Position numbers and translations under genes: made by a program. This document shows positions 3,433 through 59,474 of a stretch of DNA of 59,474 nt, in pieces; the stretch's first letter is position 1; each line of letters opens with the position of its first letter. This DNA comes from Candidatus Binatia bacterium (GTDB taxonomy: Bacteria > Desulfobacterota > Binatia > Bin18), in contig JAJDZM010000225.1 in NCBI GenBank assembly GCA_022824615.1, positions 1 to 59,474 of the forward strand, read 5' to 3'. Under the pieces are notes generated by a model. It saw nothing but the letters and a program-made list of their open reading frames with translations, was not told the origin of the DNA and searched no databases.

Positions 3433-4374
3433 TCATGCGGTTGACTCATCCTCTCTATTCCGTCCCCGTTGCTGGCCCATCACAATCCCCGTCAGCAGGC
3501 CCACCGCTCCTATCCCCTGGAGCAGACCTACTGACTCGTCGAGAAATATCCAGGCCAGCAGGGCAGCTCCAAGCGGTTCGCCGAGAATCGCCAGTGCGAC
3601 CAGTGTTGGAGACATATAGGCCAGCGCCCAGTTCAGAATGGTATGACCCAATACCTGGGGAATAAGGGCAAGCAGGATCAGGACGAGATAGACCCGTGGG
3701 GTATAATCCAGCAGCGGCAGTTGGAGGACAAGACAGCCGGCGAGTAAGATAACCGCTGCACACCCATAGACCAGCCCGACATACACGCTCAGGCCGAGAC
3801 GCGGTCGGGCCAGGCGGCCACATAGCAGATAGGCAGAGATCATGACTGCACCGCATACGGCTAGGGCATCGCCGTACAGCGCGGACTCTCGGGCCGGACC
3901 TGCCTGCTGAAAATCGTTCCAGCCGATGCACAGGCTGCCGAGCAATGCCAAGCCTATCCCCAACCATTGACGCCGGACGAGACGTTCCCGCCAGATAAGA
4001 TAGCCGGCAATGGCGAGCAGGAGCGGATTGATCGTCACCAGTGCCACGGAACTCGCGACAGAGGTGTAGCGGAGCGAGGCAATCCAGGCAGCAAAGTGGA
4101 GAGCCAGACACAGACCGGCTACACTCACCACCCGCAGGTCAGGAAGCGAGAGTGAGCCGCCCGCAGTTCGGAGCCGGACGAGGCTCAGCGGGGTGAATAG
4201 CAGTGCGGCGAGACCCAGCCGAAAAGCAGCCACTACGAGCGGCGGGACGTCGGGGACAAGCTTTATCAGCGGCGCAGCCGTCGAGATGGCGAGAATGCCC
4301 ACCCCCAGAACAGCGAGCGTTCCACGCGGCCTGGCTCCACTCATCCGAGCTAAAGAGGAAACGTCTCCTTCCAT
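3433..4374 (-). CDS. DMT/EamA family transporter
   Basis: About 10 TM segments in two EamA-like halves (SLRYTSVASS, GHTILNWAL, GEPLGA). Confidence 0.88.
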   Translation of the reverse strand: MEGDVSSLARMSGARPRGTLAVLGVGILAISTAAPLIKLVPDVPPLVVAAFRLGLAALLFTPLSLVRLRTAGGSLSLPDLRVVSVAGLCLALHFAAWIASLRYTSVASSVALVTINPLLLAIAGYLIWRERLVRRQWLGIGLALLGSLCIGWNDFQQAGPARESALYGDALAVCGAVMISAYLLCGRLARPRLGLSVYVGLVYGCAAVILLAGCLVLQLPLLDYTPRVYLVLILLALIPQVLGHTILNWALAYMSPTLVALAILGEPLGAALLAWIFLDESVGLLQGIGAVGLLTGIVMGQQRGRNREDESTA

Positions 4375-49106: not shown

Positions 49107-50819
49107 ATGCAGTACGATCTGATTATTAAAAATGGGACCGTCGTTGATGGCTCGGGTATGCCCCGATTCCGTGCCGATGTGGGCATCGTGGATGGGAAAA
49201 TCGCCTCGATTGGTCGCATTCGCGACAGCGCGCAAGAGACGATCGACGCCGAGGGCCACGTCGTCACCCCCGGCTTTATTGATGGCCATACCCATATGGA
49301 CGCCCAAGTCTCCTGGGACCCGCTCGGAACGTGTTCCTGCTGGCATGGCATTACCAGCGTGGTGATGGGCAACTGCGGATTTTCGCTCGCGCCGTGCAAG
49401 GAGAGCGAAAAGGACATGGTCATGCGCAATCTGGAGCGGGCCGAAGACATTGCGCCCGAGGCCATGAATGCCGGCATCAAATGGACCTGGGAGACCTTTC
49501 CCGAGTATCTAGATTCGGTTGAGCGGCTGCCCAAAGGCATCAACTATGCCGCCTATATGGGGCATTCCGCCCTGCGTACCCACGTGATGGGCGAGCGTGC
49601 CTTTACCGACCCGGCCACCGAGCAGGATTTGGAGCAGATGAAACAGGCGGTGCGCGAAGCGATTCAGGCCGGCGCGATAGGGTTCACCACCTCGCGTACC
49701 CGCAACCACCAGACGCCGCAGCGCCAGCCCGTGGCTAGTCGGCTGGCCACCTGGGATGAGGTCCGGCAGTTGGTTGGCACGATGGGCGAAATGGGGGCCG
49801 GCATCTTTGAAATCGCCGGAGAAGACACCGGCCAGAACCCGGAGCGCATCCGTGAATACATGGACCGTCTCAAGGCTCTGGCGGTCGATACCGGAGTCCC
49901 GGTGACCTACGGCATGTTCAGCATGCGCCGGGCGCCGGACTGCTGGCAGCCCTATCTCGATTTAACCGAGGAAACCGCAGCCGCGGGCGGCCGCATGTTT
50001 CTTCAGGTACACAGCCGCGCGCTGAATGCGGTCCTGTCCTTTCAGACCAATACGCCGTTCGACCGGCTGCCGAGCTGGCGTGCGCTCAAGAAGATGAAGT
50101 CACTCGAAGAGAAGGAAGCAGCCCTGCGGAATCCTGACTACCGGCGCAAACTGGTTGAAGAGGCTCACACCCAAGAGGACGACGGCAACCGGGGGGTCGG
50201 TCCCGAAGCGCGGGCGGCGAATTTCAAATGGCTGTTCTTGATGGACAAGCCCAATCCGCCCCACCGCTCCATTGAGGAGATCGCCGCGGAGCGGAACCAG
50301 GACCCGGTCGAGACCTTTATTGATCTGGCCCTGGAGAAAAACCTCAAGCAGTTCTTCCTGCAACCGCTGGCCAATGAGAACCAGGAGCATGTGCTGGAGA
50401 TGATGCGGCACCCGCGTTCCGTCATCACTTTCTCTGACTCCGGCGCGCACGTGTCCCAGATTATGGATTCGTCCTTACAGACCCATCTGCTGAGCCATTG
50501 GGTGCGCGAGCAGCAAGCCATCACCCTCGAAGATGCGGTCCGGCAACTCACCTTTGTGCCGGCCTCTCAGTGGGGGTTGCACGGGCGCGGCCTGCTGCGC
50601 GAGGGGATGACCGCGGACGTCGTGGTCTTCGACCCGGAAACGGTTGGGCCGATGATGCCGGAGTTGACCTACGATCTGCCCGCAGGCGCGCGGCGGCTCA
50701 AACAGAAAGCCGCGGGTTTTCTGGCTTCGGTCGTCAACGGCCAGGTGGTCCTGCGTGAAAACGAACCTACCGGTGCGCTGCCCGGCCAGTTGTTGCGCGG
50801 GCCGCTAGCTCAACGTTAA
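49107..50819 (+). CDS. N-acyl-D-amino-acid deacylase family amidohydrolase
   Basis: VVDGSG, PGFIDGHTHMD, VMGNCG and SDSGAH motifs. Confidence 0.9.
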   Translation: MQYDLIIKNGTVVDGSGMPRFRADVGIVDGKIASIGRIRDSAQETIDAEGHVVTPGFIDGHTHMDAQVSWDPLGTCSCWHGITSVVMGNCGFSLAPCKESEKDMVMRNLERAEDIAPEAMNAGIKWTWETFPEYLDSVERLPKGINYAAYMGHSALRTHVMGERAFTDPATEQDLEQMKQAVREAIQAGAIGFTTSRTRNHQTPQRQPVASRLATWDEVRQLVGTMGEMGAGIFEIAGEDTGQNPERIREYMDRLKALAVDTGVPVTYGMFSMRRAPDCWQPYLDLTEETAAAGGRMFLQVHSRALNAVLSFQTNTPFDRLPSWRALKKMKSLEEKEAALRNPDYRRKLVEEAHTQEDDGNRGVGPEARAANFKWLFLMDKPNPPHRSIEEIAAERNQDPVETFIDLALEKNLKQFFLQPLANENQEHVLEMMRHPRSVITFSDSGAHVSQIMDSSLQTHLLSHWVREQQAITLEDAVRQLTFVPASQWGLHGRGLLREGMTADVVVFDPETVGPMMPELTYDLPAGARRLKQKAAGFLASVVNGQVVLRENEPTGALPGQLLRGPLAQR

Positions 50820-50880
50820 GCGTCGGATTTTTGACTTTCCACACGGGCGGATGTGAGCGATCATGTCTGCCCGTCTGTGT

Positions 50881-51594
50881 TTATCCCGGCAGCGCCCGGC
50901 ACTCCTGACCGCTATAGAGCTGTGGGTCAAGCCCAACGGTTTCTCCAGCCACCTGTCCGGCGGCGTAGCCCTCAGGATCAACTTTCAGCGAGCGTGGTGT
51001 ACCGGACAGCTTGCGCAGGCGAGTCCCCTGGCCGGCCAGATAGGTATAGACCTCGTCGCGATAGTTTTTCCGTACCGCGGGCAAGGTAGTCTTGGCAGCG
51101 GCCGGCTCTCGTTCGGCAATCAGGGCTTTGATCTTGTCGGTGATAGACTGGGCGCAGCCATAGGCAAAGGAGTCCAGAAAACGTCGCCCCTTGCCGTAAT
51201 GCTCCTTGCGCAAACGCTGGACAGTGTGAATCAGATAGCTCAGCATCTCTTTGGCAACAACGACATTATGCGAACGACCGATAATAAACGACCGGCCCAC
51301 GGACAGGGTCGAACAGCAGAAATACAGTTTGCAGGTTGCGAGCCAGAGCAGCCGTTCCCACGGGAGCAGGCGGCTCGTTTTCCAGCCCTCGACTCGCATG
51401 TCCTGTTCGCTCTGTACGCCCTGGGCCTCAACCTCTGTCAACGAGAGATTATAGGAGGCCAGGAGCTGATGAACCTTGGCCGCTGCCAGGGCCGCTTCGT
51501 GTTCGGTCGCGGCTTCATCGCGGCTGAGTTGGAGCAGTTTCTGGATTTTATGGATGAGGGAATCCGGAGCAACGGAATCGATAGCGGTATTCAT
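50881..51594 (-). CDS. DUF2786 domain protein
   Basis: KIQKLLQLS...EHEAALAAAKVHQLLASYNL and C-terminal GYAAG; start uncertain (51594 or 51648). Confidence 0.75.
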   Translation of the reverse strand: MNTAIDSVAPDSLIHKIQKLLQLSRDEAATEHEAALAAAKVHQLLASYNLSLTEVEAQGVQSEQDMRVEGWKTSRLLPWERLLWLATCKLYFCCSTLSVGRSFIIGRSHNVVVAKEMLSYLIHTVQRLRKEHYGKGRRFLDSFAYGCAQSITDKIKALIAEREPAAAKTTLPAVRKNYRDEVYTYLAGQGTRLRKLSGTPRSLKVDPEGYAAGQVAGETVGLDPQLYSGQECRALPG

Positions 51595-51659
51595 TCCTAC
51601 CCATTCTACTGGGCACTCTGAGAAAACACTAGGGCGTATGATCGCCACCGGTGCTGCAC

Positions 51660-52454
51660 TCAGCTCCCGAGCTGACCGATACCCCAGCGGATGCCGCGCC
51701 TGAGCAGTTCATAATACACCGCTGACTCCCACGAACAGCGCTCAACAGAGCAGACCGGCATAAAGGGCTGCATGTCGTATTTCCCTCGACAGTGACCGAG
51801 CGTCAGATAGAGGACTTCCCCCTGACCGCAGGGGTGCAGATAGAGCTGGGGTCGCGGGTCGTCATTACCCAGGTCCTCGCGAACATAGCCCTCCGATTTG
51901 GCGCTATAGCGTGACTCCAGCAGCGTGTGGATTTCACCGTAAAATTCGCAGTAATACGGCTCGTCCGTGACCTCGAAGGGTTGAATGTCGCGGACGAGCG
52001 GGTGGCTGGGGTCGGCGACCGTGACGTGAATGGGCTGAATGGGTGGATGCGACACAAAGTGGTTGCCCAGCATGTCAGACAAGGCCGGTGCTTTCCGTGG
52101 CGTATCAACCTTGCCGGGAATCACAACCCCGTCGGTCTCCAGACTTTCTCCGACAAACTCCAGCAGCGCACTCGTACCGTGCAGGGCAAACCAGCGCCCG
52201 CCGCTGTTGAGAAACTGCTGGAGACCCTCCTGTTGCTCCGAGGTCGGACACACATCGCAGGTATAGGTGACGAGAAGTCTGGATTGCCGGATGGCGTCAT
52301 GATCGCGGTAATCTTCGGCGACCCGGACAACCACGTCCTCGTGTTCGGCCAGAAGCTTGAGCAGTTCAAGTCGAGCAAAATTGGTGTCGTGATATCTGGC
52401 GTTACAGATGAGATAGACATCAATACGAGCATCCCCATTACTATTTTCTGCCAT
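51660..52454 (-). CDS. ThuA-like (class I glutamine amidotransferase-like) domain protein
   Basis: GGRWFALHG, F.SHPP, DEPY and YLTLGH motifs; start at ATG 52454. Confidence 0.82.
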   Translation of the reverse strand: MAENSNGDARIDVYLICNARYHDTNFARLELLKLLAEHEDVVVRVAEDYRDHDAIRQSRLLVTYTCDVCPTSEQQEGLQQFLNSGGRWFALHGTSALLEFVGESLETDGVVIPGKVDTPRKAPALSDMLGNHFVSHPPIQPIHVTVADPSHPLVRDIQPFEVTDEPYYCEFYGEIHTLLESRYSAKSEGYVREDLGNDDPRPQLYLHPCGQGEVLYLTLGHCRGKYDMQPFMPVCSVERCSWESAVYYELLRRGIRWGIGQLGS

Positions 52455-52628
52455 AGCGCTCTCCTCCGGCTGGTATAACCTTAGCTCCATTATCCAGTTC
52501 GTGGACCAGAAAGATATCCTGGAGCGCTATGCCGGGAAAGAGACCGTCCCCATACATCTTTGCACCTGAGCCTGGGAGTGCTATGCCGTCAGTATTGAAA
52601 CGCATTTTCAGTATGCAGGAGGGGCATT

Positions 52629-53627
52629 ATGGAAAACGGACATACCATTTGTGTCGGAACTGTTGGCGCCGGGGTGTGGTATAGCTCGGACAGTGGCACC
52701 CGTTGGCGGCGGAGTCGCATGAAGCTGCCGTTCCACGCCGAACCTGGGGAAATCCAGATTCGCTCGCTGGTGGTGTCTCCGCACAACCCCAACGTGGTGT
52801 ATGCCGGCTCCGAGGTCGGGCTGTATCGCAGCGAGGACAAAGGGGCGGTTTGGGACCTGATAGAATCACCCGCAGACGGCAAACAAATCTGGTCCATTGC
52901 CGTGCATCCTGACAACCCGGACATCGTTCTTATTGGGACCAAACCGCCGTGTGTCTTTCGCACCAAGGACGATGGTCAGAACTGGGAGGAACTCCCCCTT
53001 AACGCCGCCGAGCGTTGCCTCGCCGGCGCGCCCAAGGTCACCAATCTCCTTTTTGATCCGCGTGACTCCGGCACGGTCTGGGCCAGTGTCGAGATCGACG
53101 GCGTCTATCGGAGTCTCGATGGCGGCGACACCTGGGAGCATCTGCCCGCCCTGGGCGACAGCGAGCTGAACCAGGATATCCACGGTCTGACCATCAGTCC
53201 CGACCCGCACCGAAAAATCATTGCCACCACCCCGGATGGCATCTGGACCAGCACGGACGAAGGCCAGAGCTGGGCGCTGCACGCGTTCCCACGTTTCTCC
53301 GAGCGAGGCATTTCATACTGTCGTGGCGTGGCGCTGAAAGCCGACGACCCCAACGTCATGTTTGTGGGCAATGGCGATTTCATCCCAGGCAAGGTCGGGG
53401 CTATCCAGCGTTCGACCGACGGTGGGCAAACCTGGCAGTCCGCCCCGTTACCCGTGGTGCCAAACTCGACCATGTACTGGTTTGCCACGCATCCGGCGGA
53501 CCCCGACTTTATCGTGGCCAACAGCCTGCACGGCTATGTCTACACCAGTCAGGACGGCGGAGCGTCGTGGACCAAATCGGAACGAGAGTTCGGTGAGGTC
53601 CGGGCCTTGGCCTGGGTGCCAAACTAA
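52629..53627 (+). CDS. BNR/Asp-box repeat beta-propeller protein
   Basis: Repeated S.D.G.(T/S)W boxes (SSDSGTRW, SLDGGDTW, STDGGQTW, SQDGGASW). Confidence 0.85.
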   Translation: MENGHTICVGTVGAGVWYSSDSGTRWRRSRMKLPFHAEPGEIQIRSLVVSPHNPNVVYAGSEVGLYRSEDKGAVWDLIESPADGKQIWSIAVHPDNPDIVLIGTKPPCVFRTKDDGQNWEELPLNAAERCLAGAPKVTNLLFDPRDSGTVWASVEIDGVYRSLDGGDTWEHLPALGDSELNQDIHGLTISPDPHRKIIATTPDGIWTSTDEGQSWALHAFPRFSERGISYCRGVALKADDPNVMFVGNGDFIPGKVGAIQRSTDGGQTWQSAPLPVVPNSTMYWFATHPADPDFIVANSLHGYVYTSQDGGASWTKSEREFGEVRALAWVPN

Positions 53628-53631
53628 CAAG

Positions 53632-53669
53632 TCCCCTCTCCCCTGGTGGGAGAGGGCCAGGGTGAGGGG
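53632..53669 (+). repeat. REP-like repeat, copy 2
   Basis: TCCCCTCTCCCCTGGTGGGAGAGGGCCAGGGTGAGGGG. Confidence 0.8.
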
Positions 53670-53720
53670 GATAGTCTCGCGGGTGCAGCCCATGCACCTC
53701 TGCCGCCAGCGCGCCCCCCA

Positions 53721-53757
53721 TCCCCTCTTGGGAGGGGTGGCCGAAGGCCGGGGTGGG
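53721..53757 (+). repeat. Second REP-like palindrome family copy
   Basis: TCCCCTCTTGGGAGGGGTGGCCGAAGGCCGGGGTGGG. Confidence 0.55.
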
Positions 53758-53763
53758 TTGCCC

Positions 53764-55263
53764 TTACCCGACTCCATATTTTTTCATCCAGTTGGTAAAC
53801 GTCTGGTAGTTCGGCAGGCCGACCAGTTTGCAGGCCGCGGACTTATTGCTCCGAGCCTCGCTGTACGCCCGGCTCAGATAATGTCGTGCTACCTCGGCCA
53901 GCAGGTCGGGCAGATCGAATCCATCGCCCAGGCTGCGGTTCAGTACCGACTCGGAAGCAGGGAGCTCTTTTCTGACCGGAAAGAGCGCCGCCTGAATGTC
54001 CTGCGCGTTAATGACTTGTGTCACGGCCCAGATGGCAGCCCGAGATAGGGTGTTGGACAGCTCACGGACATTTCCCGGCCAGGGGTGTTGGAGGAGAAGA
54101 TTTCTTGCCTCAACAGACAATTGTTTGTGAACCCACCCGGGCTGCCGCGCACAGTCGGTATTGATTTTCTCCAACACGTGATCAATCAGTAGGCCCACGT
54201 CCCCGGTTCGCTCGCGCAGAGCCGGCAGGCGTAGCACGCCGACTGCCAGCCGGTGGAACAGGTCTTCTCGGAAGCGTTGTCCGGCAACTTCATCCCGAAG
54301 GTTGCGATTGGTGGCGGCAATGACTCGAATGTCTATCTTCCTGGGCTTGGTCGAACCGATCCGTTGGACCGTGCCTTCCTGAAGACAGCGCAGCAGCTTG
54401 ACCTGGGCGGCCAGCGGAAGCTCGCCGATTTCATCCAGAAACAGGGTACCGGTATGCGCGGCTTCCAAATAACCGGCTTTGGCCTCGGCTCCGGTGAAGG
54501 CTCCTTTGGTAGTGCCGAAAAACTCGGCTTCGACCAACTCACCCGGAATCGCTCCGCAGTTGACCTCGATGAACGGCCGTCCGGCCCTGTGGCTGGACGC
54601 ATGAATCGCTCGCGCGAACAGTTCTTTGCCGGTGCCAGACTCGCCCTGAATCAACACCGGCACATCGTGCACGGCCAGTCGTCTGGCTCGGGCAATCTCT
54701 GTTTTCACTGCCTGACAGCGATGGATGATTGCCCCAAATTCCGGGGCTTCCGCCGGTAGCCCTTGCGTGAGGCGGACAATCTGGTCAGCATTGATCTGCG
54801 GCAGGTATTCAGCCGCAAGGTCGAATGGAAACGAGACGGTCCGGACACCGTCCTGCACGGACGACTCTATGAGTTCCGCAGGATGGGTGGTTTTGGCCAG
54901 CACGATCCACACCGCAGCCATAGCCGGGGTGCCCGGACTGAGATGATACACGAACCGGGCAGAGCCGTTTGCCTTGTCGCGCAGACTATTGAGCACCGCT
55001 ACAGCGGCTTCATAGATTTCGTCGAATCGGGTAGGGCTGCTCAGAGAGACTGTGTGAAGGGTAGCCTTGATCCTGCACCGCTCGTTCAGCCATGTGCGGT
55101 AAGTCTGTGACTGATGAGGCGCATGGTCGGTCAGGAGATGGACAGTATCAAACTCCCGTGCCTGCACAGCCTGTCCGATGGGGCCGAGTTCACCGTCCAA
55201 TTCGTTACCGGAAGCCCGCAAATCCGTATTGCCCAGCCAGGCGACAAGAACACATTGAGACAT
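53764..55263 (-). CDS. Sigma-54-dependent enhancer-binding protein with RtcR/CARF-like N-terminal domain
   Basis: GESGTGKE, GAFTGA, LFLDEIG, FREDL and WPGNVREL motifs plus C-terminal HTH. N-terminus VAWLGNTD...HLSPGTPAM resembles the RtcR sensor domain. Confidence 0.88.
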   Translation of the reverse strand: MSQCVLVAWLGNTDLRASGNELDGELGPIGQAVQAREFDTVHLLTDHAPHQSQTYRTWLNERCRIKATLHTVSLSSPTRFDEIYEAAVAVLNSLRDKANGSARFVYHLSPGTPAMAAVWIVLAKTTHPAELIESSVQDGVRTVSFPFDLAAEYLPQINADQIVRLTQGLPAEAPEFGAIIHRCQAVKTEIARARRLAVHDVPVLIQGESGTGKELFARAIHASSHRAGRPFIEVNCGAIPGELVEAEFFGTTKGAFTGAEAKAGYLEAAHTGTLFLDEIGELPLAAQVKLLRCLQEGTVQRIGSTKPRKIDIRVIAATNRNLRDEVAGQRFREDLFHRLAVGVLRLPALRERTGDVGLLIDHVLEKINTDCARQPGWVHKQLSVEARNLLLQHPWPGNVRELSNTLSRAAIWAVTQVINAQDIQAALFPVRKELPASESVLNRSLGDGFDLPDLLAEVARHYLSRAYSEARSNKSAACKLVGLPNYQTFTNWMKKYGVG

Positions 55264-55274
55264 GGCCTGTTCAT

Positions 55275-55288
55275 ACAAGATTTCTTGT
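55275..55288. promoter_or_regulatory. Candidate enhancer/operator palindrome
   Basis: ACAAGA-tt-TCTTGT, about 200 bp upstream of the sigma-54 promoter and next to the activator start. Confidence 0.3.
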
Positions 55289-55347
55289 TCCATGCAAAGT
55301 TTTGTGTGACCCAATTCCCTCCTTTTCCCGGAGAGAGGCATGTTTTT

Positions 55348-55384
55348 TCCCTCTCCCCTGGAGGGAGAGGGCTAGGGTGAGGGG
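55348..55384 (+). repeat. REP-like repeat, copy 3
   Basis: TCCCTCTCCCCTGGAGGGAGAGGGCTAGGGTGAGGGG. Confidence 0.8.
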
Positions 55385-55482
55385 GAAATGCAAACTGAAT
55401 CACTGCCCAAAAATGGAGTTCAATAGCCAAGCGTCGTTAATTTCCGTACAGTGGGGCCGTTCAATGCAAGGCGGTACCATCG

Positions 55483-55498
55483 TGGCACGGGAGTTGCA
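55483..55498 (+). promoter_or_regulatory. Sigma-54 (-24/-12) promoter
   Basis: TGGCAC-GGGAG-TTGCA with exact GG-N10-GC spacing, 47 nt upstream of ATG 55546 and facing away from a GAFTGA activator. Confidence 0.85.
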
Positions 55499-55545
55499 CT
55501 ATCCTCTAAGCAGAAAGCTGAACAACGGAACCGGAGAACAAGAAC

Positions 55546-57306
55546 ATGCTGCGTGAGTACCGGCTGACCAACTTCAAAGCCTTCGGCGAAACCGTCACCA
55601 TCCCCATTCGCCCCCTCACGCTTATCTTTGGTGCAAACTCGTCCGGCAAAAGCTCGATCTTCCAGTCGTTGTTGCTCCTGAAGCAGACACTTGAAGAAGC
55701 CAAAAACCCGAAGACTGCTCTACTCCCCAAAGGTAGCTTGGTTGATTTGGGGACGTATTCTGACTTCGTTCATGGTCATGACACCACTCTAAATTTCGAG
55801 GTTGACGCGCTGTTCGATGACGTGGAGAACTCAAATCTACATATTGAGTTTCGTTATGATAAAAAGCTCAAGAACCCGGGTCGGGTCATAACTTTGAGAG
55901 GAGATAGTTACCAGAATCGAAATGATGCGCGACCTGCAATTTCATGGTCACTGAAGTTATTTGAACGGAATGACAAGGGAGCTTTTAAGTCTATCATTGA
56001 ACCGGCCAAAGAGGAGACGGACAAAGAGCAAGCTGAATACACTAGGAGCGTTATCAGGAGATCGGTGCCGGATAGAGTGAAAGCTGAAGATGCGCTGGCT
56101 AAACTGGATAAAGAATATGCTCAGGAGGTTGAGGCCCTGTGGGCGAAAGAGTCAGAGTTGGTAGGAGCCGATAGTAAAAGTTTTGGTATGTTTCAGGTTG
56201 ACTTTGGGCCGGATTCTGCGCGCTGTTGGTGGGATAAAATTAAAAAATCCCTTGAAGCAGAATTTATTGGGAAGGCGTATGCCGTGGACTTTGATGAAGA
56301 GTCGTATAACCCTGAAGATTTCTTTCGGGATTTTTTAGCTGACTATCCACTAGATCAGATTGTTCAATCCTTGAGAACAGGTGTTGTCTTCGATCTTCGC
56401 CGTACTAATTTTTCACCAACCGATATTAAGGGACTCTCAGAATTTCTAGGAGTCCCAGGAGAGGATAACATTTTTCGAGCAGAATCGTACGGTTGGACGA
56501 CATGGCAAACAGAGGAGTACCCATTTAGGAAAGAGGGTGAGTCCTATAGGCAGTCTCTTGGAGCTTATGTCCTCCCTCCAATGTTCCTTCCCGTCTGTTC
56601 AAAATTTAGTGATACCCTCAAAAATCTCCTGTACCTGGGGCCTTTGCGGAGTCAGCCGGAACGCTATTACACATTCAGTGGCGACACGACTGACTATGTT
56701 GGCCAATCAGGCGAATACCTGTCTTCTCTCCTTTTCGAGGATCAGGAATTAGTAGAACAAATTAACAGCGACCTGGAACGGCTTGGCGTAAAATACCAAG
56801 TAAAACTTGACAAACTGCAATACGAAGACAAGAGCCCAAGCAACGTATTTTCCCTTCGCTTAGTTGATACGGAAACCAAGACAGATGCTAGCCTGCGGGA
56901 TGTCGGCTTCGGCATCAGTCAAGTCCTGCCTATCGTCGTGCAAAGTCGACTTTCCGAAAAGAAGACGCTGTTAATTGAACAACCGGAAATCCATCTTCAC
57001 CCCGCTCATCAGGCCGAACTCGGAGACTTGTTTATCAGGTCTGCTAAGGAACGGGGCAACACCCTTCTTTTGGAGACGCATAGCGAACATCTGCTACTGA
57101 GAATCATGCGACGGATGCGTGAGACGAGTACGGGCAAACTCTCCGAAGGTGCCATTGCAGTCCGACCGGAGGACGTAATGGTGCTCTTTGTAGAGTCAGA
57201 CGGCTCGCAGAGCGTCGTTCGCGAGATGCCGCTCGACGAGCGTGGCGAGCTTGTGAAGGCGTGGCCGGGCGGATTTTTCGAGGAAGGCTTGCGAGAAATC
57301 TTCTGA
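55546..57306 (+). CDS. ABC/AAA_21-type ATPase with DUF3696-like C-terminus
   Basis: NFKAF, GANSSGKSS, YLGPLR, DVGFGISQVLP, IEQPEIHLHP, ETHSEH and WPGGFFE motifs. Confidence 0.88.
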   Translation: MLREYRLTNFKAFGETVTIPIRPLTLIFGANSSGKSSIFQSLLLLKQTLEEAKNPKTALLPKGSLVDLGTYSDFVHGHDTTLNFEVDALFDDVENSNLHIEFRYDKKLKNPGRVITLRGDSYQNRNDARPAISWSLKLFERNDKGAFKSIIEPAKEETDKEQAEYTRSVIRRSVPDRVKAEDALAKLDKEYAQEVEALWAKESELVGADSKSFGMFQVDFGPDSARCWWDKIKKSLEAEFIGKAYAVDFDEESYNPEDFFRDFLADYPLDQIVQSLRTGVVFDLRRTNFSPTDIKGLSEFLGVPGEDNIFRAESYGWTTWQTEEYPFRKEGESYRQSLGAYVLPPMFLPVCSKFSDTLKNLLYLGPLRSQPERYYTFSGDTTDYVGQSGEYLSSLLFEDQELVEQINSDLERLGVKYQVKLDKLQYEDKSPSNVFSLRLVDTETKTDASLRDVGFGISQVLPIVVQSRLSEKKTLLIEQPEIHLHPAHQAELGDLFIRSAKERGNTLLLETHSEHLLLRIMRRMRETSTGKLSEGAIAVRPEDVMVLFVESDGSQSVVREMPLDERGELVKAWPGGFFEEGLREIF

Positions 57307-58244
57307 TGTCCCTGCTGGCCGACTACGCGCTCACGCCGGATGTTTTCGACCTGACTTCGTACTCGAACGAGGACGCCTGCCGCGCATACATCGAGCTTAT
57401 TCGAGAACCGCTCCTCACCGAAGGGCTCGTTCGAGACCTTCGGAAGGGGGAGTGGAGGCGGCTTTTCAATGACGACCGTCGTCCCTGGCATCAACGAGGC
57501 AAAGAACTCGTTAAGAAGCTATTCACCCAACAGCGACTGATCGAATTTGGGCCTGCCTTGAGCAACAGACCCGTCGAAGACCAAGATTGGTGCGTCGAGG
57601 CGCTTGCTACTCACCAACTGTTCCGATTTACGGGTGGAATAATCTCGACCGAAGCGGTCAAGAACGCATATCCTGATGAGCCGCTTGTTGCCAGAATTGA
57701 CCGACTTGGGAGCGCGCAGTGGTGGGCGTCACGAAGTCCGTCTGTCCGTCCGTATCGCACGACCGAGGACTACAAGGAACATCTTGACTTGGTTCTGCGC
57801 CACTCCAACTCGCTCCTGTTCATTGATCCTTACCTTGATCCCACGAAACGACAATATCAGAGGTTTCACGAACTCCTTGTCCACGCGGGCAACCGCACCC
57901 CATCGCCGCTAATTGAAATTCACCGAGTGTGGTACGAAGGATCAGGGCCGGGCCAAAGGGATGTTCGAGAAAGTCTGGTGTCGAATTTTCGAGAGAGACT
58001 CGAAAGTCCTCTGTGTTCTGCTGGTCTTCAAATCGAAGTCTTTGTTTGGGACGACTTCCACGATCGCTACCTGATTAGCAATCTGATGGGGATATCACTA
58101 CCCAACGGCTTTGATACCACGGCGAAGCCGAACGACCGTACTACCTGGAATCGCCTTGGACGCGACGACCGGGACGACGTCCAGCGCGAGTTCGACAAGG
58201 CCAGCAAGCGACACACACTACATAGGCAGTTCACGATTCCGTAG
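57306..58244 (+). CDS. Protein with C-terminal PLD-like (MIT_C-type) domain, putative effector
   Basis: FIDPYL...FHDRYLI...LPNGFD; TGATG stop/start overlap with the ATPase. Confidence 0.6.
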   Translation: MSLLADYALTPDVFDLTSYSNEDACRAYIELIREPLLTEGLVRDLRKGEWRRLFNDDRRPWHQRGKELVKKLFTQQRLIEFGPALSNRPVEDQDWCVEALATHQLFRFTGGIISTEAVKNAYPDEPLVARIDRLGSAQWWASRSPSVRPYRTTEDYKEHLDLVLRHSNSLLFIDPYLDPTKRQYQRFHELLVHAGNRTPSPLIEIHRVWYEGSGPGQRDVRESLVSNFRERLESPLCSAGLQIEVFVWDDFHDRYLISNLMGISLPNGFDTTAKPNDRTTWNRLGRDDRDDVQREFDKASKRHTLHRQFTIP

Positions 58245-58278
58245 TGCCAAGTTGCTGATAGAGAAACGGAGCGAACAC

Positions 58279-58740
58279 TCACAACAGCCGAAACTGCCGC
58301 AATACATCTGCTACCCGTTCGTCGCTCTTGCCCAGGGAGCGGAAGGCTTCGAGCAGGGAGTGCAGGCTCTCGCGGTCACGGGCTAACTCTTCTTCCATGG
58401 CCTGCACCTTGCTCTCGAACGGTCGGACCATCGTCCGGCGGTCCCACAGGGCAAAGCCAATCGTCACCGCCACGAGGGCGGTAAAGGCTCCGAGAATCCC
58501 GAGCATGAGTTGAGACAGGCGGTCAAACTGCGCATTCATATCTTGTCGAAGTTGAGCAATGGTGGCAGTGTTGGCGTCGATTTTTGCCACCAAGTGGCTT
58601 TGCCCTGCTTCCAGCTTTGTCAAGCGTTCAATGATCTCCCGGTCGGAGAGGGGCGGGGCGGTCTCAAGGGCTTCCACCTTGATTGGACCTAGCAGGGCCA
58701 GGAACATAAGGAGGGCTGCCGTTTCGCCAAATCTCAGCAT
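58279..58740 (-). CDS. Hypothetical membrane protein with coiled coils
   Basis: Signal-like N-terminus, EIIERLTKLEAGQ coiled coil, one TM segment, WDRRT motif. Confidence 0.7.
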   Translation of the reverse strand: MLRFGETAALLMFLALLGPIKVEALETAPPLSDREIIERLTKLEAGQSHLVAKIDANTATIAQLRQDMNAQFDRLSQLMLGILGAFTALVAVTIGFALWDRRTMVRPFESKVQAMEEELARDRESLHSLLEAFRSLGKSDERVADVLRQFRLL

Positions 58741-58799
58741 AATATTTATGAAACGGGACTGAGGGGGAGAAGTCAACCGGCGATCGTGCCTCCACTCTC

Positions 58800-58836
58800 C
58801 CCCTCACCCCATCCCTCTCCCTCCAGGGGAGAGGGA
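58800..58836 (-). repeat. REP-like repeat, copy 4 (inverted)
   Basis: Reverse complement reads TCCCTCTCCCCTGGAGGGAGAGGGATGGGGTGAGGGG. Confidence 0.8.
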
Positions 58837-58923
58837 GCGGTATACCAACCGGCGGCTCGCCCAAGCTTGTATAGGGACCGAGAAGCGCATATGAAGTGAC
58901 GGGTACAAAAAACGGAGGAAGAC

Positions 58924-59474
58924 ATGCAGGCAGCGAGCGATGTGACAACGAGCGATTATGGGACCGCTGAATCGGCCATGCAGGCGTATCTGCGCGAAGG
59001 GGAGAAACGGGCCTATGCGCTCGATAATCGTGGCCCGATTCGTTTTCACGCCGATGGCAGGGTCCACACCGACATTCTTGATGCCTATTGGAAATATGGC
59101 TTCTATGTCTTCGAAGGGGTGCTCAAGCAAGAGGAACTGAACGATATCGAAGCCGACCTGTTCGACATCATGGAACGTCTCCCGACCGAGCGGGGCTCTG
59201 CGGTCGATGCTCAGGGGCGTCCGGCCTTGGGGGCTGATTGTGAGGCGCGGACGCTGTTCTGGTCCAAACCGCTCGGCGACCCTTTTGGCGGGACCGATCT
59301 CGCCAACGGTCGCCATCCGGTCAAAATGCTGGAGCCCACCCCGGCTACCGGTCTGCCCCAGGAAGTAGTCTATCTCATCATCGGCTCGCTTCAATTTTCC
59401 GAAGCCAGCCTCCGCACCTATGCCCATCCGCAGCTCCTGGCCGTGGCGGCAGCCGTCAACGGTGAGGATTTTGT
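58924..59474 (+). CDS. Phytanoyl-CoA dioxygenase family protein (3'-truncated by window edge; absent from the ORF track)
   Basis: GGAGG RBS; open frame MQAASDV...NRGPIRF...YWKYGFYVFEGVL...YAHPQLLAVAAAVNGEDF running off the end. Confidence 0.72.
   Translation, partial: MQAASDVTTSDYGTAESAMQAYLREGEKRAYALDNRGPIRFHADGRVHTDILDAYWKYGFYVFEGVLKQEELNDIEADLFDIMERLPTERGSAVDAQGRPALGADCEARTLFWSKPLGDPFGGTDLANGRHPVKMLEPTPATGLPQEVVYLIIGSLQFSEASLRTYAHPQLLAVAAAVNGEDF

Follow-up and report, generated by a model that had tools for sequence, protein, structure and literature searches.

An RtcR-like activator and a sigma-54 promoter box accompany a Menshen-like ATPase–effector pair in a Candidatus Binatia bacterium

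Results

The stretch of DNA analysed here, which we call the window, is the forward strand of contig JAJDZM010000225.1 from Candidatus Binatia bacterium (assembly GCA_022824615.1), 59,474 nucleotides (nt) in all, and towards its end, at 53764–58244, it carries a module of three genes and one promoter. One gene, on the minus strand, encodes an RtcR-like transcriptional activator; the other two, on the plus strand and divergent from the first, encode an ABC ATPase and a putative effector and are preceded by a -24/-12 box of the sigma-54 type (Table 1). A preliminary description, made from the sequence alone, took the locus for an inducible immune operon that matched no named system. Our analyses indicate that activators of this kind are accompanied by such a box in several phyla, and that the ATPase and effector are related to two components of a named defence system, Menshen.

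The activator belongs to the RtcR_PspF2 family

Over residues 30–524 the activator matches positions 2–480 of the 481-position PADLOC model RtcR_PspF2--CARF_AAA_HTH (PDLC01995) at 625.6 bits, a model that has no curated cut-off, and in Pfam it matches Sigma54_activat (219 bits) and AAA_lid_14 (69.6 bits). The NCBIfam equivalog model for RtcR (NF038308) gives 327.2 bits over residues 62–514, short of its cut-off of 650, and the PADLOC model for RtcR gives 186.8 bits. An N-terminal CARF domain is recognised by PADLOC profiles (Table 1) and, under its own cut-off, by Pfam Cas_Csm6_CARF (E value 0.023). Since the full-length match is to RtcR_PspF2, the CARF profiles match as well, and the RtcR score lies below its cut-off, we conclude from profile comparison that the protein is RtcR-like and CARF-like, yet not RtcR. 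This bears out the preliminary assignment of an RtcR-like, CARF-like N-terminal domain to an activator whose GAFTGA motif (residues 280–285) is intact, and the homologous activators that were checked all fall in the same family (13/13, 454–682 bits). A sequence search of the PDB matched the AAA+ and lid parts only and returned no solved CARF relative; Pfam HTH_8 was not reported on the activator at E ≤ 0.1. The true start of the protein may be an internal methionine, M17 or M27.

With RtcR and its rtcBA operon the activator shares an architecture (CARF, AAA+ with GAFTGA, helix-turn-helix (HTH)), an adjacent sigma-54 operon and, in the window, the divergent layout. It differs in belonging to the RtcR_PspF2 branch and in its cargo, an ATPase and a PIN–PLD protein rather than a ligase and a cyclase. 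As the preliminary description had it, rtcA and rtcB are missing: neither was found across the whole assembly, which is 89.6% complete.

A -24/-12 box is linked to the activator across phyla

The sequence TGGCAC-N5-TTGCA, already reported as an exact promoter match divergent from the activator, occurs once in the 59,474 bases when both strands are searched, and in shuffled versions of the window exact matches averaged 0.03 (3 of 100 shuffles contained one). With one mismatch tolerated the motif is not rare, 1.11 matches per window being expected by chance, so that the statistical weight rests on the exactness of the match, on its position and on comparative data. The box stands 47 nt ahead of the ATPase ATG (55546); it has the GG at -24 and the GC at -12 that a sigma-54 promoter should have, rpoN is present in the genome (contig C182), and the divergent gene encodes a bacterial enhancer-binding protein with GAFTGA.

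Comparative data came from a scan of 185,579 species-representative genomes, one per species, which yielded 79 effector loci. When the stretch upstream of the ATPase was scanned uniformly for TGGCA[CT]-N5-NTGC, the box was found in 18 of the 21 loci with an activator upstream and in none of the 32 without one. The three misses are of two kinds: in L061 the box, at 4186, lies just beyond the scanned stretch, and in L013 and L066 it follows the activator directly and precedes the intervening genes (another module or hsdM). With all positions inspected, in every locus whose activator lies upstream on the same strand (25/25) the box separates the activator from the gene that follows it. In Vicinamibacterales it begins at the base following the activator's stop codon, and the Latescibacterota version reads TGGCACGAAATATGCT. 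Six further homologues of the activator in the window's phylum also have an adjacent box (6/6), which abuts the stop codon in five cases and is divergent, as in the window, in the sixth (L092). The box is real, and it is tied to the activator family across phyla, as the preliminary description had proposed should be checked behind homologous activators.

It could be argued that the match in the window is fortuitous and that the activator controls some other target, given that a one-mismatch motif is expected by chance and that the window's orientation is divergent where 25 other loci are tandem. The exactness of the match, its distance from the ATPase start, the distribution of the box over tandem and activator-less loci, and the failure to find a sigma-70-like promoter in the spacer between activator and ATPase together make this extremely improbable.

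Terminator-like sites were found neither in or directly after the spacer nor downstream of the effector stop, the few hits being no more numerous than in shuffled sequence. GTTCAAT is repeated at ~55418 and ~55461, but this is too weak a signal to count as an activator site. In seven Latescibacterota loci (L045, L046, L049, L050, L053, L059 and L070) activator and ATPase are ~230 nt apart, and 3′ of the box there is a conserved leader (CAATGGGCGTGACAGCG...CCTGAAAGAATTTCTTGACAAAGCTGCTGT...) that might be a regulatory 5′ untranslated region.

The ATPase and effector are Menshen-like

In the window the ATPase TGA and the effector ATG overlap by 1 nt (TGATG) and homologues of the effector begin at the same methionine, which upholds the translational coupling proposed earlier. 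In 53 of the 79 loci a full-length ATPase open reading frame (ORF) ends no more than 400 nt from the start of the effector, the remainder being mostly contig-edge or fragmentary matches.

The earlier assignment of the ATPase to an ABC/DUF3696 type also stands: Pfam reports AAA_15 (89.6 bits), AAA_21 (64.3 bits) and DUF3696 (26.1 bits, cut-off 22). Of the PADLOC models, NsnB of Menshen scores best (196.7 bits), PDC-M55A (186.7) and HEC-03B (182.8) score nearly as well, and AriA (96 bits), GajA and PtuA are weaker, far below NsnB. Across 35 orthologues (alignment A4) the Walker A motif GxNxxGKS, LGPLR, the GxG signature, the Walker B motif IEQPE and ETHSEH are invariant, with G454-x-G456, R368 and E478-Q479 unchanged throughout, and the tail sequence KAWPGGFFEE is nearly so.

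The effector carries the IDPY, HDRY and NGFD motifs listed in the preliminary description (FIDPYLDP at residues 172–179, FHDRY at 251–255 and PNGFDT at 266–271), and yet it matches nothing in Pfam or NCBIfam, nor do any of 57 family members match Pfam at E ≤ 0.01. A single-sequence AlphaFold model was unusable, with a predicted local distance difference test (pLDDT) score of 39, and was replaced by a model based on an alignment of 57 sequences (pLDDT 96, predicted template-modelling score 0.90). This second model predicts a PIN-like N-terminal domain and a C-terminal domain of the MIT_C/PLD-like fold that had been suspected from the motifs. On the model, D174 follows strand 2 and the HDR motif precedes strand 5, a placement that would put the domain in the PLD superfamily, with PB-PLD1; D174 (in FIDP), H206, W248, F251, H252, D253 and R254 are invariant in 57/57 sequences. 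The classical HKD motif of Nuc and BfiI, HxK(x)4D, is absent from the effector, in which FHDRYLISN has Arg for Lys, displaced by one position. For the four acidic residues (D-E-D-D) that catalytic PIN nucleases conserve, the candidate positions in the PIN-like domain are D/E6 (in 56 of the 57 sequences), D12 (50), E39 (49), E98 (57) and D132 (36). At the level of sequence the link to NsnC is thin: the PADLOC NsnC model matches the window effector at E 0.018 and four of the 57 family members (best E 1.3e-5), another single member matching BrxL. MIT_C-bearing and BrxL clusters are among the effector's neighbours in a protein-language-model atlas.

Menshen (NsnA–NsnB–NsnC), with the domains of NsnB and NsnC, was defined by Li et al. 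(NAR 2025, PMC12065111). According to the main text of that paper, NsnB stands out by its GxG signature, by a Q-loop with Arg at the position of Gln and by an altered Walker B, and NsnC has the architecture "inPIN + PB-PLD1", where strand 2 of PB-PLD1 is followed by an acidic residue and strand 5 is preceded by HDR. The ATPase of the window resembles NsnB, so described, in joining AAA_15 to a DUF3696 tail and in its GxG, its Q-loop Arg and a non-canonical Walker B; the effector resembles NsnC in its PIN-like N-terminal and PB-PLD1 (MIT_C-like) C-terminal domains and in the placement of their motifs. Because NsnB is the best match of the ATPase and the partner has the published NsnC architecture, the pair is a Menshen-like NsnB–NsnC, two thirds of Menshen, with the features of NsnB and NsnC but not NsnA, and the statement that the locus matches no named system no longer holds. 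Differences from Menshen lie in the length of the ATPase (586 aa against the 345 positions of the PADLOC NsnB model, ~240 residues longer), in a Walker B that reads E-Q where PMC12065111 gives E-N, in the strong conservation of the effector where the published NsnC proteins are hypervariable, and in the place of NsnA, for which there is no adjacent gene here, the CARF activator and sigma-54 promoter presumably gating expression instead.

On the effector side, none of the partner models of PDC-M55 and HEC-03 was matched at E ≤ 0.1, close as their ATPase scores come to that of NsnB; both are, we assume, untested PADLOC candidate systems. PARIS (AriA–AriB), Septu (PtuA–PtuB) and Gabija (GajA) likewise combine an ABC ATPase of the OLD/AAA_15 clade with a nuclease-type effector, and to this extent the preliminary comparison with PARIS and Septu was apt. 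It does not extend to the partner, which is PIN plus PLD and neither TOPRIM nor HNH; the PADLOC models for AriB and PtuB gave no match at E ≤ 0.1, and no TOPRIM match was found. As a family for the pair, PARIS, Septu, Gabija and AbiL were rejected, with ATPase scores below NsnB and partner domains missing.

Elsewhere in the same genome, at C168:210–3096, a shorter ATPase paralogue (455-aa frame) immediately precedes a DUF262 gene, and this locus may be a canonical or type II Menshen-like one. The genome has four DUF262 genes, all on contigs other than that of the module.

The two proteins are predicted to bind through the DUF3696 tail

A 1:1 complex of ATPase and effector is predicted with a score of 0.73, the best control scoring 0.02. 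Of 80 solved complexes 58 attain that mark, as do 2 of 110 mismatched pairs. Contacts agree to at least 93% among the three runs, and the partner has a pLDDT of at least 89. In the model, residues 550–579 of the ATPase, in the DUF3696 region, lie against residues 168–169, 199, 202, 257–260 and 286–302 of the effector's PLD domain and against a helix of the PIN-like domain (residues 71 and 74–76), the PLD-side residues being predicted to adjoin the catalytic motifs. The model thus supports binding via DUF3696 and leaves the geometry unsettled, and its score may partly reflect likeness to known ABC-ATPase–nuclease complexes. Binding via DUF3696 is also what was predicted for Menshen in the main text of PMC12065111, where AlphaFold 3 models of NsnB4–NsnC2 have the PIN-like domain sandwiched by two DUF3696 tails.

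The pair occurs behind the activator or at the end of type I restriction-modification operons

The effector family comprises 982 proteins at E ≤ 0.001, the best 120 of which are 58–97% identical; identity is ~60% across phyla, and the mean column identity in 30 effectors from several phyla is 72%. The 79 loci span Binatia, Acidobacteriota (mainly Vicinamibacterales), Latescibacterota, Planctomycetota, Gammaproteobacteria, Thermodesulfobacteriota, Nitrospirota, Spirochaetia, Verrucomicrobiota, Cyanobacteria and others. One of them, L042, has 4 in-frame stops and no ATPase and looks like a pseudogene; its row was dropped from the alignment.

Two arrangements dominate, the pair without and the pair with the activator. 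Among 27 activator-less loci that were annotated, 18 have type I restriction-modification (R-M) genes (the C-terminus of hsdR, hsdM, hsdS) within the three upstream ORFs, so that the defence context supposed in the preliminary description is seen in these relatives. There the pair forms the 3′ end of the R-M operon, often with a 4-nt overlap between the ATPase gene and the preceding gene (hsdS or an intervening ORF), and sometimes a further gene is wedged in between (OLD, YhcG, pP_pnuc_1, DUF6119, DUF3800, KwaB-like or DUF2130). In the other nine the upstream ORFs encode other ATPases, SIR2, reverse transcriptase, or nothing recognisable. DUF262/NsnA was not reported within up to 3 upstream ORFs of the 27 loci. 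Other genes of defence type next to the pair encode RVT_1 reverse transcriptases (L036, L038), an AEP-TOTE primase-helicase (L014), a 1,273-aa SIR2_2 protein (L034), and ShosA-like and RmuC/ZorA-like proteins (L033).

An activator homologue is present in 27 loci: it lies upstream on the same strand in 25, is divergent like that of the window in L001, and in L033 lies downstream, facing another operon. In the window and 23 other loci the pair stands directly behind activator and box with no R-M genes between, and in one tandem locus, L066, a type I methyltransferase gene (hsdM) separates activator and pair. The cargo of the six further homologues in the window's phylum is a type I R-M operon in four, an unknown ATPase pair in one and a single unknown gene in one; one of the four R-M loci, L090, runs activator, box, hsdR, hsdM, hsdS, NsnB-like ATPase and PLD paralogue. 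Vicinamibacterales and Latescibacterota have one or two further ATPase–partner pairs behind the first. For each of the seven second or third ATPases tested the best model is NsnB or PDC-M55A (128–146 bits), and their partners (310–347 aa), none of which (0/15) matches a PADLOC model at E ≤ 0.001, are as a family (alignment A3) homologous to the window effector along its full length (hhalign probability 99.7%, E 3e-25), with the motifs FxDPxF and FH[N/A/D]RY.

The linkage to R-M genes invites a different view of the pair, in which it would chiefly guard type I R-M, or back it up, in the manner of PrrC or PARIS; the window copy would then be an orphaned remnant and its activator link a secondary matter. 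PrrC and PARIS are triggered when restriction is inhibited. Besides the 18 activator-less loci and the gene overlaps, this account can point to L090 and L066, in which activator, box, type I R-M genes and pair form one string, and to a quick effector tree (63 rows, with rows below 280 aa excluded, and SH-aLRT support, that is, a Shimodaira–Hasegawa-like approximate likelihood ratio test). On that tree activator presence changes 10 times by parsimony, at least 5 changes being forced by well-supported branches, from which it follows that the association was repeatedly gained or lost; shuffled labels give a mean of 19.8. With 5 to 10 changes set against that mean, the association, as far as the tree goes, is clustered yet polyphyletic, a pattern of repeated exchange between R-M-rider and activator-led contexts. 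Against a guard of R-M stand the 24 loci, the window included, in which nothing of R-M separates activator, box and pair, and the arrays of two or three pairs that Vicinamibacterales and Latescibacterota keep behind an activator, since the retention of such arrays marks the activator-led form as stable in its own right. We regard the guard hypothesis as unlikely.

Insertion sequence (IS) elements break 3 of the 27 activator-linked loci, namely L001 and two from Latescibacterota. L001, the tree partner of the window, comes from a Binatia relative with ~91% DNA identity and the same chromosomal context; an 870-bp element of the IS4/IS5 family (L001:4459–5328; DUF4096, DDE_Tnp_1) there replaces window positions 54589–56633, so that the promoter is lost together with the CARF domain and two thirds of the ATPase, and window positions 58246–58846 are missing too. 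A Mutator-family transposase (L070:4615–5958) splits the effector gene in one Latescibacterota locus, and in the other an IS4/5 transposase (L059:5290–6090) lies between ATPase and effector. In the window itself the guanine-plus-cytosine (GC) fraction falls to 0.45–0.47 at 55600–56800, where the ATPase gene is rich in insertions in its central part, compared with 0.58–0.63 in the flanks and 0.60 in the activator, which suggests a recombined or foreign segment.

Such signs of cost (the IS disruptions) and of horizontal acquisition (the GC dip), together with the Pfam description of AAA_21 as 'putative AbiEii toxin, Type IV TA system' (TA, toxin–antitoxin), would also fit a selfish module of the addiction or toxin kind, or a weapon used in conflicts among mobile elements, that brings no anti-phage benefit and whose cost sigma-54 gating limits. 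We consider this improbable: near the module in the window there is neither an antitoxin-like small gene nor a mobile-element backbone, the locus is syntenic in L001, and the family is almost absent from viral contigs, 2.9 million of which contained 1 distant relative (31% identity).

Alternatively, the locus might be an operon for nucleic-acid repair or end healing, an analogue of rtcBA in which the CARF domain senses damaged RNA and the PIN–PLD protein and ATPase trim or heal RNA or DNA ends, much as Tdp1, an enzyme of the PLD family, removes 3′ adducts. The regulator is, after all, related to RtcR and, rtcB and rtcA not having been found, must control something else; the effector is conserved across phyla as an enzyme with a universal substrate would be, and the locus is syntenic in the related species. 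These points have to be set against a patchy spread (the activator's CARF domain in 7 of 301 genomes of the window's phylum and not in the same-genus genome G110; 79 effector loci among all species genomes scanned), recurrent linkage to type I R-M operons and proximity to other defence genes, ATPase models of which the closest all describe defence ATPases, three loci disrupted by IS elements, and diversified tandem paralogue pairs that resemble an arms race rather than housekeeping. On balance a repair function seems to us rather unlikely.

The activator and the pair have precedents, their combination does not

A family of RtcR-like proteins composed of CARF, NtrC-type AAA+ and HTH parts, not rtc-linked and often found with R-M systems, was described by Makarova et al. 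(2014, PMC4012209), and Bell et al. (2024, PMC11090510) described CoCoNuT defence superoperons that begin with an RtcR homologue and proposed that these are induced by RNA fragments with cyclic-phosphate ends. As set out in the passages of these papers on RtcR-like proteins, the activators concerned have the same architecture as that of the window, the same position at the 5′ end of co-directional defence genes and the same hypothesis of induction by RNA fragments, and the R-M link of PMC4012209 has its counterpart in the four R-M loci among the six phylum homologues. Not mentioned in those passages are NsnB/NsnC-like cargo, tandem arrays of pairs, or a box abutting the activator's stop codon; CoCoNuT differs further in its McrBC-type genes, which are absent here. 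Nor does the main text of PMC12065111 mention RtcR or sigma-54 control. In the passages on RtcR and the sections on Menshen that were consulted, no RtcR-like activator is joined to an NsnB/NsnC-like pair. Of the claim that sensor, promoter and effector form an undescribed combination, what stands is therefore the joining of the activator to such a pair, and what has to be given up is the novelty of an RtcR-like CARF activator in R-M and defence settings, already reported in PMC4012209 and PMC11090510. The parts of the locus are known and their combination is undescribed; it is not a categorically new system.

The surroundings of the module in the window

The genes that flank the module are metabolic or unrelated (amidohydrolase-like, ThuA, BNR repeat). 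A DUF2786/DUF7168 protein is encoded at 50881–51648 on the minus strand, 2 kb off the module, amid the ThuA and BNR-repeat genes. A 165-aa ORF (58279–58776, minus strand) converges on the effector gene and to the eye has a hydrophobic N-terminus and heptad-like sequence; it has no Pfam match and no homologue among the fetched loci, and it is missing from the syntenic relative L001. Palindromic G+C-rich elements of ~40 nt (CCCTCTCCCCTGG.GGGAGAGGG..AGGGTGAGGGGGA) occur at 53633–53672, 55348–55386 and 58794–58836, bracketing the activator and the entire module, with one copy in the spacer between activator and promoter. They belong to a dispersed repeat resembling repetitive extragenic palindromes (REP-like), with at least 38 copies in G110. 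That genome is of no help in placing the borders of an island by synteny: a single flanking gene is matched (77% identity), the other matches being the dispersed repeat. Rfam families were not found in 50000–59474, nor tRNA genes in the window.

Table 1 Features of the module, in window coordinates.
Feature	Position	Strand	Basis or detail
RtcR_PspF2-family sigma-54 enhancer-binding activator (CARF, AAA+, HTH), 525 aa	53764..55341	-	ORF, PADLOC, Pfam
C-terminal HTH region, ~residues 480–524	53770..53904	-	PADLOC CARF_AAA_HTH full-length model aligns to 524
AAA+ sigma-54 interaction domain	54238..54726	-	Walker A GESGTGKE 54622-54645; GAFTGA 54487-54504
CARF-like sensor domain, ~residues 30–190	54772..55254	-	PADLOC CARF4 E 1.9e-12, Csx1/Csm6 E 6e-4
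Divergent intergenic region, presumed home of the activator's upstream sites	55342..55482		REP-like repeat 55348-55386
Sigma-54 -24/-12 promoter TGGCAC-GGGAG-TTGCA, TGGCACGGGAGTTGCA	55483..55498	+	exact match, unique in window
GGAG ribosome-binding site, 9 nt 5′ of ATPase ATG	55533..55536	+	read from sequence
NsnB-like ABC ATPase, 586 aa	55546..57306	+	Pfam, PADLOC, 35-sequence alignment A4
ATPase Walker A GANSSGKS	55630-55653	+	
ATPase LGPLR, Arg at Q-loop Gln position	56635-56649	+	
ATPase GFG signature	56905-56913	+	
ATPase Walker B LLIEQPE	56968-56988	+	
ATPase ETHSEH	57073-57090	+	
ATPase DUF3696 tail	57166-57288	+	
Effector, 312 aa	57306..58244	+	ORF; homologues share start ATG
PIN-like N-terminal domain, residues 1–144	57306..57737	+	predicted
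MIT_C/PLD-like C-terminal domain, residues 145–312, plus stop codon	57738..58244	+	predicted
Effector key residue D174 in FIDP	57819-57842	+	
Effector key residues H206-R207 in EIHR	57915-57926	+	
Effector key residues H252-D253-R254	58059-58067	+	

Discussion

The locus described here is a real, conserved module, and probably an inducible defence module. Its scarcity within the phylum, its disruption by IS elements and the GC dip in its ATPase gene give it an accessory character. In our judgement the best explanation, which we hold to be likely though far from certain, is a defence cassette that is dependent on sigma-54 and gated by a ligand. The CARF domain would hold the AAA+ motor off until a ligand arrives; by analogy with RtcR (reportedly the subject of studies by Hughes in 2020 and Kotta-Loizou in 2022), that inducer would be a product of RNA damage or a nucleic-acid product derived from infection. 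The ligand-bound activator would then remodel sigma-54 RNA polymerase at the -24/-12 box and switch on the otherwise silent two-gene operon, so that transcription would depend on rpoN; control of this type would leave essentially no basal expression, which fits a toxic cargo. Once made, the ATPase and effector may assemble through the DUF3696 tail, as the structural model predicts, into a complex whose trigger is nucleotide state or some second cue. ATP might be bound and slowly hydrolysed, given the invariant E-Q in Walker B, with the nucleotide state of the ATPase holding or releasing a PLD-type nuclease; the freed phosphodiesterase would cut nucleic acid, its presumed substrate, and stop the propagation of phage or plasmid.

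Several observations weigh against this explanation. The window copy lies outside any recognisable defence island, its immediate neighbours being metabolic or unrelated. NsnA, the sensor that defines Menshen and in that system a ParB-DUF262 + ParBDB protein encoded just upstream of NsnB, is not adjacent; what lies upstream of the ATPase is the divergent activator gene. No binding site for the activator was identified in a by-eye search of the divergent spacer, part of which is filled by the repeat. The invariant E-Q of Walker B may mean that the ATPase binds ATP rather than hydrolyses it, and judging by the alignments the effector shows a degree of conservation unusual in a defence protein, considering that NsnC is described as hypervariable in the main text of PMC12065111. 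As for the predicted complex, it was modelled 1:1 and the assembly itself is probably a higher oligomer, and its contacts are mainly with the PLD domain where the published NsnB–NsnC models contact the PIN-like domain. The near absence of the family from viral contigs is uninformative on defence and removes an argument from mobile elements.

A bolder extension of the ligand-gated cassette, which we put forward as possible rather than probable, is that in this lineage NsnA was replaced by a transcription factor of the RtcR_PspF2 family. Once its CARF domain detects a ligand from infection or RNA damage, a wholly silent sigma-54 promoter would release the expression of one or several tandem NsnB–NsnC cassettes, and the DUF3696 tail would plug the PLD active site until the nucleotide state changes. 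If this is true, threat sensing would have been outsourced to transcription, and the RtcR_PspF2 activator with its stop-abutting box would constitute a portable 'inducible defence switch' that many phyla place before type I R-M and other systems.

The census of Menshen reported in the main text of PMC12065111 was seeded on NsnA, and pairs without NsnA were therefore beyond its reach. NsnB–NsnC-like pairs do exist without NsnA, and they are frequent 3′ riders of type I R-M operons, which a census so seeded could not find.

The wider interest of the module lies in its control. Most bacterial defence systems are thought to be constitutive and to be activated after translation. Here a toxic-looking nuclease module sits behind the tightest type of bacterial promoter and a ligand-sensing CARF activator, an arrangement that recurs in Binatia, Acidobacteriota (mainly Vicinamibacterales), Latescibacterota, Nitrospirota and other lineages. 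Compact as it is, with three genes and one promoter, the system would be handy for asking what CARF domains outside CRISPR sense; it bears on the enzymatic role of the MIT_C-like PLD domain that is common to BrxL and human MITD1, and on whether inducible transcription can do the work of the dedicated sensor subunit NsnA.

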